Shown in pieces: positions 26,394 to 31,809 of a stretch of DNA of 64,000 nt; the stretch's first letter is position 1, and the number at the start of each line of letters is the position of its first letter. Made by a program: the position numbers and the translations under genes. Source of the DNA: Bacillota bacterium. GTDB lineage: Bacteria; Bacillota; Sulfobacillia; JAUYEG01. The stretch lies in NCBI GenBank assembly GCA_040766985.1, contig JAXGPL010000006.1:70284-134283 (forward strand), read 5' to 3'. The notes beneath the pieces were generated by a model. The model was not told where the DNA came from and did not search any database. It was given only the letters and a program-made list of their open reading frames with translations.

Positions 26394-28922
26394 TTGCTTG
26401 GAGGGGTCCTTCTGAACCGCGAAGCCGACTACACTCAACTCCGCCTGACGACTTCCCCATCTGACGTGGCCTGTGAGCACACGGGCGAGCTTACGCCGCT
26501 GTCGGGCATCATCGGCCAGGAGCGCGCGGTTCGGGCGCTGCGCTTTGGCCTGGGGATCAGAGCCAGGGGGTTCAACATTTACCTCGCCGGTGCGCCGGGG
26601 ACCGGCAGGACGACCGCCGCCACCGACTACCTGAGGACCGCGGCTCGCGCCGAGCCGACTCCGCCGGACTGGGTCTACGTGCACAACTTCAAGGATCCGT
26701 ACCAGCCCAAGGCCCTGCGGCTGTCGCCCGGCAAGGGGCGCCAGTTCGCCGAGGATGTCGGCAAGCTCATCGAGCGGGTCCAAGCGGAGCTGCCCAAGGC
26801 GTTCGAGTCCGCTCCCTACACAGAGCAGCGCGGCGAGATCGCCGAGAAGCTCTCCGACCGCCGCCGTGAGCTGTTGTCTCGCCTGACGCAGCAGGCAAAG
26901 GAACGGGGCATGGCCATTCAGGCGACGCCCGCAGGTTTCGTCATTGTCCCGGTCCGGGACGACAAGCCGCTCACCGACGACGAAATCGAGGGCATGGACG
27001 AGCAGAGCCGGGATGACATGACCCGCCGCCGGGACGAGGTCGAGGCCGAACTGAAGTCCTTTCTCAGCGACATGCGCACCGCCGAGAAATCCGCCGCCGA
27101 AGAGATCAGCAAGCTCGATCGGGAGGTCGCGGTATACGCCATCGGCCACCTGGTCGACGAGACGGTGGCGGAGTACTCGGACATTGAGGGCGCCGGCGAC
27201 TACCTCCGGGCTCTGGAGGAGGATGTCATCGACAAGCAGGCCCTGTTTCGGGGGACCGGCCATTCCGGCGGCGATGAGGAGAGCCGTCACCGGCAGGAAG
27301 CCATGCGCGACGTGTTCGGCCGGGATATGCGGTTTCGCAGGTATGAGGTAAATGTCATTGTCGATAACAGCACGCTGTTGGGAGCGCCGGTGGTGATCGA
27401 GCTCAACCCGACCTTCACCAACCTGTTCGGCAAGATGGAGAAGGAAGCGCAGTTCGGTGCCTTGACCACGGACTTCACGATGATCCGCCCCGGCGCTTTG
27501 CACCGGGCCAACGGCGGCTACCTGGTGGTGCCGGCCCGCGAGGTCCTGACCAACCTTTTCACCTACGAAACCCTCAAGCTCGCCGCCCGCTCCAGGGAGA
27601 TCGCAATTGAGGAGGTCGCGGAGCGCCTCGGGCTGACGACTACGAAGAGCCTGCGCCCCGAGCCTATCCCGCTGGACGTCAAGTTGGTGATGATCGGAGA
27701 TTCGTACCTGCACTTTCTGCTCCACGCCTATGACCCGGACTTCGGCGAGCTGTTCAAGGTCAAAGCCGAGTTCGGCACGACGATGGACCGCACGGCCGAG
27801 AAAACCGCGCAGTATGCCGCCTTTGTCTGTACGCTGTGCGAGAAGGAAGGCCTTCGACACCTCAGGGCGGCCGCGGTCGCGGAACTAATCGACCACAGCG
27901 CCCGGTTGGCCGGCGACAGGCACAAGCTGACGACGGAGTTCTCCGAGATCGCCGACCTGATCCGCGAGGCCGACTACTGGGCGGGCATCGAAGGCGCGGA
28001 CCTGATCGACAGGGGACACGTCGAGAGGGCCATCGACGAGAAGCACTTCCGCTCAAACCTCATCGAGGAGCGCCTCCGCGAACTCGTCGCTCAGGGAGTC
28101 ATCCTTATCCAGACCCGCGGCGAACAGGCGGGCCAGGTCAACGGGCTCTCGGTTTTCAGCCTGGGCGACCTGACGTTCGGGAGTCCTGCCCGGATCACGG
28201 CGACGGTCGGCATCGGGCGGGCAGGCGTGGTCGACATCGAGCGTGAGGCGAGGCTTGGCGGCCCTATCCACACCAAGGGCGTTCTCATCCTCGGCGGCCT
28301 GCTCGCTGAGCGGTACGCCCGCGATATCCCGTTGAGCCTCTCGGCGCGCCTGGTCTTTGAGCAGAACTACGGGATGGTGGAGGGCGACTCTGCATCTTTG
28401 GCGGAAACCTGCGCGCTCCTTTCCGCCCTGAGCGGCGTACCGATCCGGCAGTCGATCGCGGTAACGGGGTCGATCAACCAGAAGGGCCAGGTCCAACCCA
28501 TCGGCGGGGTCAATGAGAAGATCGAGGGCTTCTATGCGACGTGCAAGCTCAACAGCGGCGAGAACGGTCCAGACGGTACGCAGGGCGTTGTCATCCCCGA
28601 GAGCAACGTTCGCCACCTGATGCTCCGTCGCGACGTTGTGGAGGCAGCCCGGGAAGGCCGTTTTCACATCTGGCCGGTTTCCACGCTGGACGAAGCGCTG
28701 GAGATCCTGACCGGGACTCCAGCGGGGCGGCAGGGGACCGACGGATCATACCCCGAGGGCAGCATCAACGCCCGGGTGATGGCAAGACTTGCCCAGCTGG
28801 CCGAAAGGATGATCCGCTTCGGTGCGGGCTCCGGTGCGGCGACGGTCGTACGCACGGAGGCTCCGCCGGGCGAGCCCGAACCGCAGCCGCCACAGCCGCC
28901 GCCGGTGACCAGAGAAGCGTAA
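26394..28922 (+). CDS. LonC-type Lon-like protease (AAA-like domain with degenerate Walker motifs, long helical insert, S16 protease domain)
   Basis: 842 aa, intact. IIGQERAVRALRFGL; P-loop GAPGTGRTT (Arg codon AGG at 26607-26609 where Lys is canonical); ANGGYLVVPAREV where hhhhDE is expected; protease motifs VEGDSASLAE and TGSINQKGQVQPIGGVNEKIEGF. Confidence 0.85.
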   Translation: MLGGVLLNREADYTQLRLTTSPSDVACEHTGELTPLSGIIGQERAVRALRFGLGIRARGFNIYLAGAPGTGRTTAATDYLRTAARAEPTPPDWVYVHNFKDPYQPKALRLSPGKGRQFAEDVGKLIERVQAELPKAFESAPYTEQRGEIAEKLSDRRRELLSRLTQQAKERGMAIQATPAGFVIVPVRDDKPLTDDEIEGMDEQSRDDMTRRRDEVEAELKSFLSDMRTAEKSAAEEISKLDREVAVYAIGHLVDETVAEYSDIEGAGDYLRALEEDVIDKQALFRGTGHSGGDEESRHRQEAMRDVFGRDMRFRRYEVNVIVDNSTLLGAPVVIELNPTFTNLFGKMEKEAQFGALTTDFTMIRPGALHRANGGYLVVPAREVLTNLFTYETLKLAARSREIAIEEVAERLGLTTTKSLRPEPIPLDVKLVMIGDSYLHFLLHAYDPDFGELFKVKAEFGTTMDRTAEKTAQYAAFVCTLCEKEGLRHLRAAAVAELIDHSARLAGDRHKLTTEFSEIADLIREADYWAGIEGADLIDRGHVERAIDEKHFRSNLIEERLRELVAQGVILIQTRGEQAGQVNGLSVFSLGDLTFGSPARITATVGIGRAGVVDIEREARLGGPIHTKGVLILGGLLAERYARDIPLSLSARLVFEQNYGMVEGDSASLAETCALLSALSGVPIRQSIAVTGSINQKGQVQPIGGVNEKIEGFYATCKLNSGENGPDGTQGVVIPESNVRHLMLRRDVVEAAREGRFHIWPVSTLDEALEILTGTPAGRQGTDGSYPEGSINARVMARLAQLAERMIRFGAGSGAATVVRTEAPPGEPEPQPPQPPPVTREA

Positions 28923-28953: not shown

Positions 28954-29012
28954 ACGCCCGCGCCGATGCCCGCGCCGATTTCCGTACTCGGCGCGGGCGT
29001 TCCTTTGGTTTG
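28954..29012 (+). terminator. Intrinsic terminator after the Lon-like gene
   Basis: AACGCCCGCGCCGA (28954-28967) pairs perfectly (14 bp) with TCGGCGCGGGCGTT (28989-29002), followed by CCTTTGGTTT. Confidence 0.6.
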
Positions 29013-29184
29013 GGCTCCATCCCAACCTCGGTTACCTCCAGGGGGCTCCCCGCTACTATGCGAGTGCTGGCCCACGATTGGGCAAGACGCTCCAAGGCCT
29101 GGTCCGGGTTCCCCGAAGCTCACTGCCAACGGTCGGCCAGCACTGCTGTTCAGTCTATTCGGCGAATGGGGAGGGGGTGAGTTG

Positions 29185-29448
29185 ATGGAGAAAGCGGAGG
29201 TCCAGACCATTCTGGAGCTTGCCAAGCAGATGTTTATGGAGGATGCCCCGAAGGCGGCTGCTGCCGCGCCCGAGGCTAATACCGCGAAGTGCCCCGGCAA
29301 CACCGTTCACCGGTGCCCCCCTGACAACGGCTGTGCCGTGCCTTTGCTGGCCCTGTACTTTGTGTTCTCGGATTGCGTCGTGATCAATAATGGCGCCTGC
29401 CCGCAGTGGGATTTCTGCGGCAACGCGGTTGCCTGCGCCCGGAAGTAG
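29185..29448 (+). CDS. Small cysteine-rich protein P1 (87 aa, 7 Cys), unknown family
   Basis: ATG at 29185, 7 nt after GGGGAGGGGG. MEKAEVQTILELAKQMF...KCPGNTVHRCPPDNGCAVPLLALYFVFSDCVVINNGACPQWDFCGNAVACARK. Paralogous core shared with the next ORF. Confidence 0.55.
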   Translation: MEKAEVQTILELAKQMFMEDAPKAAAAAPEANTAKCPGNTVHRCPPDNGCAVPLLALYFVFSDCVVINNGACPQWDFCGNAVACARK

Positions 29449-29550
29449 TGGACTGCCCGGACTGGAGCCCGGTCGGGTGCGCTGCCGTCGCACTCCGACC
29501 GCCCGGAGCCCATGTAGTGAGGAGGGATTAAGCTGAGATCCAAAGATATC

Positions 29551-29826
29551 GTGATCGGTGGTTCTGACCAGGCCAATGCCGAACGGCCCTCATTTGAATA
29601 CGGGGAACGCGAACTCGCGCACGATTGCAGGTGCAAAGACAACTGTGCCGTGCCGCAGAAGGTCATCTACATCATCTTCACCGACAAGACCTGCATCGAC
29701 AAGCTTTGCGTGTCGAAGACATGTGGGCTGACCAAAGCCGAAGCGAGGATGCTCTGGAAGCTCTGGTGGCGGTGGAAACAAGGCTGCCGGCAGGGCGACG
29801 GTCGCTTCGACTGGCGCCGCGGCTAA
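29551..29826 (+). CDS. Small cysteine-rich protein P2 (7 Cys), paralog of P1; start uncertain
   Basis: ...HDCRCKDNCAVPQKVIYIIFTDKTCIDKLCVSKTCGL..., then a Trp/Arg-rich tail (MLWKLWWRWKQGCRQGDGRFDWRRG). AGGAGG at 29520-29525 would fit an in-frame CTG at 29533 better than the GTG at 29551. Confidence 0.5.
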   Translation: MIGGSDQANAERPSFEYGERELAHDCRCKDNCAVPQKVIYIIFTDKTCIDKLCVSKTCGLTKAEARMLWKLWWRWKQGCRQGDGRFDWRRG

Positions 29827-29925
29827 GAGCCACGACCCGGTGTGGCGGCAGAACGGAGGGCCGCTGACGGCGGCCTCGGGCTGCCGCTCCGGTGTTGGGG
29901 ACATGCCCTCGCCGACCCCGTCCCA

Positions 29926-31809
29926 CTACCGCGGCACGACCAACTCGCATAGGGCTCCCGCTACTTCACCCCGCGTCATCGTCAGGCACCTCGCTTCCAA
30001 CTCACCGGCGGTGCTCCTGCGCAACCCAAATTGGCGCCGCGCGGCCTCGATCCACGCTGCCGCCTCGGCCGGCGATACCGGGTCGTCAGGAGCGAAGTCC
30101 AGTCCGCAGGCGCGCAGGATTCCGCACACGGCGAGGTACTGAACGGGGAAGAACGCCGGGTGGCCGATCGGCACATCGCAGAACCAGTAAAGCGGCACTC
30201 CGGACGACAGGAGAAGCCGCTGCAGGCGTCTGAGTAATCCCAGGTCAAGTGCTACGTCCACCGTCCCGCAGCCGATCTTGCCGGCCATGGCGCATAGAGC
30301 CCCGGCGGCCTCGCCGATGTTCCACTCCACGGGCTGGAACCGGTACGCTCCGTTGGCAATGTGCGTGGTGGAGATGGTCTTGCCGCCGGCCACGAAGTTG
30401 GCGATGTCGGCGGCCACCATTGCGGACAGCGGAATCTGGTATCTCAGGACGCGCTGCCCGGAACCCCGCCGCGACGTGGTGTGAGCGCACCGGTGAATGT
30501 CGATGTACGGATACCAGCCGATGCCCACCGTATCGGGGTGCATCCTTGCCCGGACGCCGCAGTTGTACCCGGCCGCCACGTCCTGCTCGCGGATCGTGTC
30601 CAGGCCGTAAAGCCGCCTCGCTTCGCGGATGTGGGGTTCCTCAGCCAGCCCGTCGGGGCTGCCCATGACATCGGCGCGGAGCTTAAGTTCGGGATAGCCT
30701 TTGCCCTTGCCGTCGTCGCGCGGCGCCTCCGTCTGCAGCCAATAGAGAAAGCTGAGTGCCAGCTGTTTGGCACGCTGCTTGTGTCGCAGGATGCCTTCGG
30801 TGGGTTGGCCGATCAAGGTTTCATCGTGGTAGTCGGTGCTCGCGGAGCTGACCAGGGAGAGGTCGCCGGCGAATTCCGGGCTCGCGAAGTGCCCCGCGTA
30901 AATGATCCGCCGCCAGTTCAGGAACGATCGGCTGCCCCGCCCGTGCGCGAACATGGTCCGCCCGCCCAGGGTGAACGGGTGCGTACGCCGGAGTTCATCA
31001 TAGAGCTCAGGCTTGGGGATGACGTGTTGTTCGCCGGGGCGGAACTCCACCGCGAAGGTGTATGTGAACGACTGGGTGGCTCGGGGGTCCGGTACGGCCG
31101 GCGCGCTGGGCTCACCGGTTTCGGCAAAGCAGTCGGTACCCACCCGGTAGGCTATTCCCGCCAGCGGCATCAGCTCGCCCGTCTCCGTGGCGTCGATCAC
31201 GTATCGGGGCCGGATGCGAGTGGACTTGCCGGTCGCCGCCGTCTCCACGACGACCTCGGAAACCCGTTCGCCGTCGCGCTTGGCGGCGCAAAGGGTGGTA
31301 CCGAGCAGTACCCTGAGCCTCCCTGATCGTCGCGCCGGTTCGACCATCCGCTCAAGCGCCGCCACTCCCGCCTTCGGTTCAAATGCCAGGGGGGTCTGCC
31401 GCCGCGGGGAGCCGGGGTTGGGCAAGCGGTCGTCCAGCCGCAGTATGAGCTTGAGGTGAGGGCGGTAGTATTCCTTGATCTGCCGCCGCAACTCGTAGTA
31501 CAGCGCTGTGCCGCCGAACTGATCAATGAAGGCGTGCTCCTCGAGTACCGAGACCCCTTGGGAGGTCATCGCGCCGCCGAGCACGGACGCCGGCTCGACG
31601 AGGGTGACGTCGCATCCCATTGCCGTGGCCTTTAGCGCTGCGGCTACCCCTCCAAGTCCGCCCCCGGCGACGAGCAACGTGCAATCAGCCTGGGCTGACG
31701 GGGTGGTCACCATGGACCGGCCGCCGCGCCCGCCGTATTGGGTTTTACGCACCTCAACCGTTTCCTGGCTCTTGCCTGCGGCCCCGTGCTCGGCGTAGAC
31801 GCATAGCAC
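29926..31809 (-). CDS. FAD-dependent oxidoreductase (true start possibly ATG at 31713)
   Basis: TLLVAGGGLGGVAAALKATAMGCDVTLVE...GGAMTSQG dinucleotide-binding motif. 627-aa ORF with coding-like sequence throughout. Confidence 0.8.
   Translation of the reverse strand: MLCVYAEHGAAGKSQETVEVRKTQYGGRGGRSMVTTPSAQADCTLLVAGGGLGGVAAALKATAMGCDVTLVEPASVLGGAMTSQGVSVLEEHAFIDQFGGTALYYELRRQIKEYYRPHLKLILRLDDRLPNPGSPRRQTPLAFEPKAGVAALERMVEPARRSGRLRVLLGTTLCAAKRDGERVSEVVVETAATGKSTRIRPRYVIDATETGELMPLAGIAYRVGTDCFAETGEPSAPAVPDPRATQSFTYTFAVEFRPGEQHVIPKPELYDELRRTHPFTLGGRTMFAHGRGSRSFLNWRRIIYAGHFASPEFAGDLSLVSSASTDYHDETLIGQPTEGILRHKQRAKQLALSFLYWLQTEAPRDDGKGKGYPELKLRADVMGSPDGLAEEPHIREARRLYGLDTIREQDVAAGYNCGVRARMHPDTVGIGWYPYIDIHRCAHTTSRRGSGQRVLRYQIPLSAMVAADIANFVAGGKTISTTHIANGAYRFQPVEWNIGEAAGALCAMAGKIGCGTVDVALDLGLLRRLQRLLLSSGVPLYWFCDVPIGHPAFFPVQYLAVCGILRACGLDFAPDDPVSPAEAAAWIEAARRQFGLRRSTAGELEARCLTMTRGEVAGALCELVVPR

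Follow-up and report, generated by a model that had tools for sequence, protein, structure and literature searches.

The 64,000-nucleotide stretch of contig JAXGPL010000006.1 analysed here (positions 70,284 to 134,283 of the contig; assembly GCA_040766985.1, Bacillota bacterium; referred to as the window) contains two intact, adjacent and co-directional small genes, P1 and P2, each predicted to encode a protein with seven cysteine residues, as described in the initial annotation. Based on its sequence, P1 is assigned to an undescribed and rare orphan family, here called the INNGAC family, which is confined to few uncultured lineages of endospore-forming Bacillota. Both P1 and P2 are real genes under purifying selection. 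In comparison to the orthologues in three related contigs the changes in both genes are concentrated at the third codon positions, and the ratio of non-synonymous to synonymous substitution rates (dN/dS) amounts to 0.16-0.40 for P1 and to 0.29-0.44 for P2.

In the P1 protein an amphipathic helix at the N-terminus is joined by an Ala/Pro linker to a cysteine-rich core. The cysteine residues of the protein are located at positions 36, 44, 50, 64, 72, 78 and 84. The N-terminus MEKAEVQTILELAKQMF fits the consensus of the amphipathic helix in the family (M-x-D/E-K-E-x-V/I-Q/K-A-V-L-E/D-A), and every invariant or near-invariant column of the family is present (C50, P53, Y58, C64, I67, N68, N69, A71, C72, W75, F77 and C78). 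The region corresponding to the helix is absent from P2, in which the cysteine residues occupy positions 32, 34, 38, 54, 59, 64 and 86, numbered from the CTG codon. P2 retains the motif C-x-V-P-x4-Y-I-I-F-T-D. The INN, W and FC residues of the signature have been lost from it, and an amphipathic C-terminal helix rich in Trp and Arg (LWKLWWRWKQ) has been acquired. Since only C, P, Y and I of the signature columns are kept together with the IFTD strand, P2 is regarded as a diverged paralogue and not as a typical member of the family. The full-length form of P2 with its Trp/Arg tail was seen only in the window's genus.

The core common to both proteins (C-A-V-P-x4-Y-[FI]-[VI]-F-[ST]-D) had already led the initial annotation to describe them as tandem paralogues. 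A pairwise BLASTP comparison of P1 and P2 yielded an E-value of 8e-6 over 28 residues, and the alignment of their small profiles (four sequences each) using hhalign an E-value of 6e-4. Furthermore, the P2 profile was aligned to the profile of 62 family members with a probability of 96% (E 4.3e-9), in agreement with the earlier description, and it matched P1-type genes in 14 other genomes. Because the BLASTP and hhalign comparisons and these profile matches all point to it, the homology of P1 and P2, and hence their paralogy, is well supported at the sequence level. The best explanation of their arrangement is a two-gene operon of tandem paralogues (Table 1).

Table 1. Predicted genes and sequence elements at the P1-P2 locus and the gene c30 at related loci. 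Positions refer to the window unless a locus is named.
Feature	Position	Strand	Basis or remark
P1, 87 amino acids, ATG start, acidic (isoelectric point 5.15), 7 Cys	29185..29448	+	typical INNGAC family member
P2, 97 amino acids, basic (isoelectric point 9.08), 7 Cys, 5 Trp	29533..29826	+	diverged paralogue
P2 initiation region: GGAGGG, ATTAAG, CTG (29533-29535)	29521..29535	+	comparison with relatives
Candidate P1-P2 promoter, GGTTACCTCC-N12-GCTACTATG	29030..29060	+	two invariant blocks, variable spacer
Conserved 5' leader, ~125 nucleotides	29061..29184	+	invariant arms, invariant block, ribosome-binding site
GC-rich hairpin between P1 and P2	29471..29500	+	invariant stem of 11-12 bp, variable loop, no U-tract after it
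Long GC-rich hairpin separating P2 from the convergent FAD-oxidoreductase gene	29833..29897	.	fold prediction
LonC-type Lon-like protease gene	26394..28922	+	Pfam LonC_helical, AAA_32, LonB_AAA-LID, Lon_C; context, outside the P1-P2 unit
Intrinsic-terminator-like hairpin closing the Lon gene	28969..29011	+	CCCGCGCCGA..TCGGCGCGGG, then T-rich CGTTCCTTTGGTTT; terminator scan match
Convergent gene of an FAD (flavin adenine dinucleotide)-dependent oxidoreductase	29926..31809	-	Pfam PF12831 (FAD_oxidored), E 2e-78; context only
c30	L045:9194-9637; L047:7500-7886	-; +	adjoins c2

The INNGAC family comprises proteins of 65-90 amino acids with an N-terminal helix, a short variable linker and a cysteine-rich core, and carries the signature C-x2-P-x4-Y-x5-C-x2-I-N-N-[GA]-A-C-x2-W-x-F-C. 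The C-terminal core represents the most conserved part and is near-invariant across genera. Four cysteine residues (C50, C64, C72 and C78, with a spacing of x13, x7 and x5) are invariant or near-invariant and are surrounded by aromatic residues. No signal peptide was detected in the family proteins.

A profile built from P1 and its close relatives identified open reading frames (ORFs) of 65-85 codons in 26 of the 210 genomes of the same class, and homologues with the invariant cysteine residues occur in about 26 species, which settles the concern raised with the initial annotation that the cysteine pattern might not recur in other genomes. According to a word-indexed search of 5.8 billion proteins the family is represented by 63 clusters. 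A Pfam domain is absent from all of them, and wherever the source gives a name it is "hypothetical", with the single exception of a cluster labelled "putative hemolysin" by JGI. The exhaustive search of 1.84 billion representatives with a hidden Markov model returned 35 matches, corresponding to about 33 members and two false positives, which were long matches to a protein with kringle repeats (P0083) and to a low-complexity repeat (P0084). Among 185,579 species genomes 24 loci were found, all of them in metagenome-assembled genomes (MAGs) of Bacillota. The named records are MAGs of "Candidatus" Fermentithermobacillaceae, unclassified Bacillota, one Desulforudis sp. and UBA911.

No Pfam match was obtained for P1 and P2 at E-values up to 10 or for all 62 members at E-values up to 1. 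Searches of NCBIfam, PADLOC and PHROGs with P1, P2 and all 62 members returned noise only, profile searches of the PDB gave no match, and no relatives of the family were found on viral contigs. The motif INNGAC was also not found by a text search of the literature. That the family had not been recognised in the initial annotation is consistent with these results. The family gene is usually present as a single copy, and independent tandem duplications were detected in other lineages (L046, L052, L061, L065 and L066).

The initial annotation had named two potential start codons of P2, CTG 29533 and GTG 29551. In order to decide between them we can refer to four related contigs, L001 (a MAG at NCBI), L002, L004 and L005, the last of which is 99% identical to the window. 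At the start position, six bases after the ribosome-binding site GGAGGG, four of the five sequences (the window, L001, L004 and L005) have CTG, and L002 has GTG. The residues directly following it are conserved (L-R/E/Q-x-K/R-D/N-h-h-h-G), including those encoded between CTG 29533 and GTG 29551, and GTG 29551 itself is not preceded by a ribosome-binding site. In L001 no in-frame ATG, GTG or TTG is present between the CTG and the conserved cysteine region, and the product of 60 amino acids proposed by the gene caller begins inside the CAVPQ motif. For these reasons GTG 29551 was rejected, and the predicted translation start of P2 is the conserved CTG 29533. The conservation of this codon had been missed in the first reading of the sequence, as had the intergenic hairpin, the 5' leader and the separate partner gene of other genera described below.

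The P1-P2 unit is preceded by a gene predicted to encode a LonC-type protease, which is also located 5' of P1 in L001 and L002, and is followed by the convergent gene of an FAD-dependent oxidoreductase, which is syntenic in L001, L002 and L005. The order LonC-like gene, P1, hairpin, P2 and convergent FAD oxidoreductase gene recurs in four public contigs where their length allows. Both the Pfam assignments and the terminator scan agree with the earlier view that the pair forms its own unit after the terminator of the Lon-like gene. The long hairpin between P2 and the oxidoreductase gene, the GCGGCAG..CTGCCGC arms of which are kept in L001 and L002, is probably a bidirectional terminator.

In a survey of the neighbourhood all ORFs were clustered in 23 family loci from more than ten genera, and no maturase, enzyme or transporter common across genera was detected. 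The neighbouring genes are of housekeeping or unrelated function and include leuS, purA and genes putatively encoding an MntR-like regulator, an amidohydrolase, MscS, DUF885, DUF4438 and a LUD-domain protein. The initial annotation had noted that no maturase adjoins the pair, the neighbours in the window being the LonC and FAD oxidoreductase genes, and had therefore doubted that P1 and P2 give rise to ribosomally synthesised and post-translationally modified peptides (RiPPs). Since neither a maturase nor any other neighbour is kept across all 23 loci, this doubt holds.

As RiPP precursors P1 and P2 would use the helix as leader and the cysteine-rich part as core, with a maturase encoded elsewhere in the genome. 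The N-terminal helix followed by a cysteine-rich C-terminus that AlphaFold2 leaves unstructured would be in line with such a role, and a hairpin after the first gene is found in many precursor operons. The helix is loosely like the first helix of Nif11-type leaders, a likeness below the level of a statistical match. However, a RiPP or bacteriocin cluster is strongly disfavoured by the lack of any enzyme or transporter common across genera, and neither a radical-SAM, LanM, YcaO nor any other gene is kept beside the family gene in the 23 loci. Moreover, the supposed core would be the near-invariant part of the protein and the linker the variable one, the gene is usually single-copy, and neither a Gly-Gly or similar cleavage motif nor a match to a Pfam leader family was identified. 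SCIFF and the other ranthipeptide or sactipeptide precursors of Clostridia resemble the family in being short and cysteine-rich, in their occurrence in anaerobic Bacillota, in their conservation across genera and in a leader-like N-terminus, but such precursors, as far as is known, always adjoin their radical-SAM maturase, which is not the case at any of the 23 loci, and the family has no TIGR/NCBIfam match. A function as RiPP precursors therefore appears very improbable.

It is scarcely credible either that P1 and P2 form a secreted or lytic pair of the bacteriocin type in which the Trp/Arg helix of P2 would be membrane-active. The tail of P2 does resemble a cationic Trp-rich antimicrobial helix, and two-peptide bacteriocins are typically encoded by paired small genes. 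However, the proteins lack signal peptides and double-glycine leaders, neither a transporter nor an immunity gene was found near any of the loci, and the conserved chromosomal gene resides in housekeeping contexts as a single copy, with no copy on viral contigs and no match in PADLOC or PHROGs.

The sole conserved neighbour of the family gene is a convergent small gene, c2, which is located 3' of it in four genera of the Fermentithermobacillaceae (L044-L049, L053-L056 and L059; e.g. L044:7422-7899 +, L053:6927-7395 +, L054:6159-8009 +). It represents a second orphan family of approximately 105-165 amino acids without a match in Pfam or NCBIfam, which is characterised by a poly-Arg N-terminus, FVPPLGRVRTWK, TYVVVQVPR..G..ASRRI and the end LYLVLTDLVKLFKR. 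In genus g18 c2 corresponds to the C-terminus of an ORF of about 620 amino acids ending with KGLYVIFTDSLKVND...RRRWW. According to a class-wide search c2 occurs in 14 genomes, all of which contain the family gene, and in 13 of them both genes are adjacent and convergent. c2 was not found in the window's genome, and because of its absence P2 is proposed to take the place of the basic partner there.

Both c2 and P2 are strongly basic. In two genera c2 has an apparent CTG start behind GAGAGGAGGGAT-N4-5, a layout as in P2. The CTG is located 6-8 nucleotides after GGAGGG(AT) in L044, L048, L053, L056, L049 and L059, and c2 of L056 has no other in-frame start before the conserved sequence. In genus g22 c2 starts with ATG. 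Furthermore, the strand pattern [LIV][YF][LIVFM][LIVM][LIVFM]T[DEN] is limited to the family genes, P2 and c2/c48 in a six-frame search of about 330 kb of loci, and to P2 and one unrelated ORF in the whole genome of 2.36 Mb. P1 falls outside this pattern, as S replaces T (LYFVFSD). An hhalign comparison of c2 and the family over the shared strand gave a probability of 45% (E 2e-4), which is suggestive of a relationship between c2 and the cysteine-rich family.

In genus g22 c2 is adjoined by c30, predicted to encode a membrane protein of about 128-147 amino acids without a family match, which is preceded by the mother-cell-type box CAACATATTATGG. This neighbourhood suggests a small local cluster of orphan genes putatively expressed during sporulation.

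Structure prediction, which had been recommended with the initial annotation, succeeded in part. Using alignments of 62 and 68 sequences, AlphaFold2 reached a predicted local distance difference test (pLDDT) score of 63 for P1 and 56 for P2. Only the terminal helices were predicted, with moderate confidence (residues 3-25 in P1 with a pLDDT of about 80; residues 68-86 alone in P2), and neither cysteine-rich core obtained a confident fold.

The failure of AlphaFold2 on the core in the absence of a cofactor would fit a metal-dependent fold. P1 and P2 might be small cytoplasmic proteins binding Zn or an Fe-S cluster, with a regulatory or redox role following a WhiB-like logic, in which the four invariant cysteine residues would serve as metal ligands, with the basic tail of P2 making contact with nucleic acid or a partner. 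The aromatic residues around these cysteines and the strongly basic nature of P2 and c2 agree with this idea, and the hosts are anaerobic thermophiles, in which cytoplasmic disulfides are unlikely. The WhiB-like (Wbl) [4Fe-4S] proteins of Actinobacteria are indeed comparable in size (about 80-100 amino acids), in having four conserved cysteines and a basic C-terminal tail and in their link to sporulation or development. However, no Fe-S or Zn family was matched in Pfam, NCBIfam or the PDB, and the cysteine spacing of the family (C-X13-C-X7-C-X5-C) is unlike that of ferredoxins, rubredoxins, zinc ribbons and Wbl proteins (C-Xn-C-X2-C-X5-C). The family also differs from the latter by the lack of a PF02467 match and of the G[V/I]WGG turn and by its occurrence in a different phylum. 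Furthermore, these conserved cysteine residues are lost or moved in P2 and in some tandem copies. Metal binding thus seems unlikely as the primary role of the pair, though it would be compatible with a sporulation-specific expression and so partly overlaps with the interpretation favoured below.

The upstream regions of the family genes give an indication of when they may be expressed. A CATAnnnT[G/A] box is located 35-63 nucleotides 5' of the start codon in 21 of the 24 family genes, and in most of these AC or CACAC is present 15-17 nucleotides above the box (17 genes, counted by eye). The pattern spans genera with otherwise unalignable flanks, including the out-of-class MAGs of Desulforudis and UBA911. 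Only four of 224 other genes of the same loci carry the composite motif, namely c2 (twice), c48 and the membrane protein gene adjoining c2. The promoter of c2 (aaCATAAYGTGTTGACGAG) is nearly the same as that of the family gene. The pattern fits the published mother-cell promoters, for which a -10 box CATATTAT and, in the sigma-K form, a -35 element AC and a -10 element CATATAAT have been described (PMC3789822). The sigma-K promoters of B. subtilis consist of a -35 element of 5 nucleotides and a -10 element of 10 nucleotides with a gap of 14-16 nucleotides (PMC517825).

A search of six genomes for ACATATNATGTA resulted in 11 matches only, a number too small to delimit a regulon; six of them precede the family gene, two a yabR-like S1 gene, one a LysM gene and two unknowns. 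The classic sigma-K gene dpaA of the window's genome has ACATATCATGTAAC, which is almost identical to the box ACATATTATGTAAC of the family genes in two genera. This comparison is confined to the window's own taxonomic family, since the Fermentithermobacillaceae genomes lack DpaA. At the same distance from the start, spoIVA of the Fermentithermobacillaceae genomes that contain the family gene is preceded by GGCATATAGAT.

Upstream of dpaA (G000 C12:152196-152290) the sequence GCAC-N18-CATATCATGTAAC and upstream of spoIVA (L109, G090) the sequence GGTATATCC-N12-CATAGGATG were observed, both likely mother-cell promoters of the window's own family. They might be used as a reference when the sporulation regulon of this lineage is defined.

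The candidate promoter of the P1-P2 unit in the window matches the mother-cell pattern only in part. An alignment of the window, L001 and L002 revealed two invariant blocks parted by a non-conserved spacer, and no sigma-70 consensus was detected in this region. The block at the putative -35 position resembles GTAACCTCC, located 5' of the family genes in genus g18. No other copies of this promoter type were found in the window's genome, and the sigma factor is one that we infer.

Between this promoter and P1 lies a leader that is unique in the window's genome and contains two invariant, long-range complementary arms, GTGCTGGCC (29064-29072) and GGCCAGCAC (29135-29143), followed by the invariant AGTCTATTC (29152-29160) and the P1 ribosome-binding site GGGGAGGGGG (29168-29177). 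The fold energy of the leader is no better than that of shuffled sequences (z 0.37), the alignment offers no covariation, and no Rfam match was obtained in the leader or the intergenic region. The entire 5' region of P1 (29030-29184), in which the arms of 9 nucleotides are about 60 nucleotides apart, is as strongly conserved as coding sequence across four lineages. It may act as a leader RNA with a regulatory role or as a binding site for a protein.

The GC-rich hairpin between P1 and P2 was predicted in all five related sequences, with identical stems and differing loops. It would act as a 3'-stabiliser of the mRNA or as a partial terminator favouring P1 over P2. The 5' arm of the hairpin in the window (29471-29481) is without one A that is present in the 99%-identical L005 (148-159), and this single-A difference could be a real variant or a single-base indel of the assembly.

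Concerning the capacity of the hosts to sporulate, SpoIVA was identified in 184 of the 210 genomes of the class, and the window's genome encodes Spo0A, SpoIID and DpaA. Genus g24, which is similar to the Fermentithermobacillaceae and comprises four genomes (1.4-1.7 Mb, 85-92% complete), has neither SpoIVA nor the cysteine-rich family, which fits a lineage that lost sporulation.

We tentatively favour the interpretation that P1 and P2 are a pair of sporulation proteins of the mother cell, and probably a structural part of the outer layers of the spore. This interpretation appears most economical because the proteins lack a signal peptide, the ribosome-binding sites are strong, the family gene stands alone behind a promoter of the mother-cell type, the hosts are spore-forming, the cysteine residues are invariant, tandem or adjacent partners recur and acidic and basic proteins complement each other. 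Of the candidates put forward in the initial annotation, the spore or envelope component is accordingly the one favoured by the mother-cell-type promoters of the relatives, with the reservation that the window's own promoter gives only a partial match.

Several observations weigh against a role in the spore. P1 of the window has no CATA box, and a leader of 125 nucleotides lies between its promoter and the gene. The motif of the other family genes (aaCATAAnnTGTTkACG) is longer than a normal -10 box, and it may instead be, or include, the site of a transcription factor or another regulator. The window's genome, a MAG of 85% completeness, gave no SpoIVA match, and the distribution of the family within the class does not separate sporulators from non-sporulators, apart from the one genus lacking both. 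The similarity between c2 and the family is weak, and AlphaFold2 yields no confident fold for the cysteine-rich cores. The probability remaining beyond the spore interpretation and the three alternatives discussed above belongs to something else.

Cysteine-rich proteins of the spore coat, crust and exosporium are represented by CotY/CotZ of B. subtilis, ExsY of the B. cereus group and CdeC/CdeM of C. difficile. Such proteins are small to medium-sized, lack a signal peptide, are expressed from mother-cell sigma-K or sigma-E promoters, are often encoded by adjacent paralogues and form cysteine-dependent cross-links. P1 and P2 resemble them in their cysteine content, in the lack of a signal peptide and in the adjacent paralogues, their own association with the spore being putative. 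In contrast, there is no sequence similarity to CotY/Z, ExsY and CdeC and no corresponding match in Pfam, NCBIfam or the PDB; the best match to an NCBIfam coat model was that of one family member to NF041648 CotA (E 0.06). The family is also much smaller (65-90 amino acids) than the known cysteine-rich coat proteins and has its own INNGAC-W-FC signature. The sigma-K regulon of C. difficile, which includes coat genes, has been listed (PMC3789822).

According to the spore interpretation the family proteins would be synthesised by the mother cell at a late stage of sporulation, using a promoter of the sigma-K/sigma-E type and a strong ribosome-binding site, and would constitute a small structural component of the outer spore layers in which the conserved cysteine residues provide disulfide or metal bridges. 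The acidic P1 would work together with a basic partner, which in the window's genus would be P2, its amphipathic Trp/Arg-rich helix presumably binding a membrane or an acidic surface. In the four other genera this role would fall to the separate convergent c2, which shares the strand hYhhhT[D/E], the type of promoter and the CTG start. P2 would be kept at a lower level than P1 by the hairpin that follows P1 and by its weak CTG start.

Taken further, the acidic cysteine-rich family and its basic partners (P2; c2/c48) might form an undescribed two-component sporulation module, which would be defined by the shared hYhhhT[D/E] strand, co-regulation through an extended mother-cell promoter and a partner under-translated from a conserved CTG. 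It would represent a lineage-specific component from which Fermentithermobacillia-like Bacillota build their spore surface, without a counterpart in Bacillus or Clostridium, a proposal that we consider possible but rather doubtful.

Judged by sequence comparison the new family, the paralogy of P1 and P2, the CTG start and the absence of a conserved maturase neighbour are firmly established, while the function probably falls in a known category, that of the cysteine-rich sporulation proteins. Orphan families of small proteins are common. Should the spore interpretation be wrong, what remains is a rare and well-delimited orphan family, whose sharp signature allows its inclusion in the family databases.

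As far as we are aware, the composition of the spore coat has been described for few Bacilli and Clostridia only and is poorly conserved, and we know of no characterised coat proteins from the deep-branching uncultured lineages that dominate thermophilic anaerobic digesters. If the spore interpretation is true, the family would be the first handle on the spore surface of such lineages, and P1 and P2 would be a compact example of paralogues that have specialised, one as an acidic core subunit and the other as a basic partner rich in Trp. The conserved CTG start predicted for two distantly related partner genes represents an unusual and clear natural case of non-canonical initiation that is apparently kept by selection.

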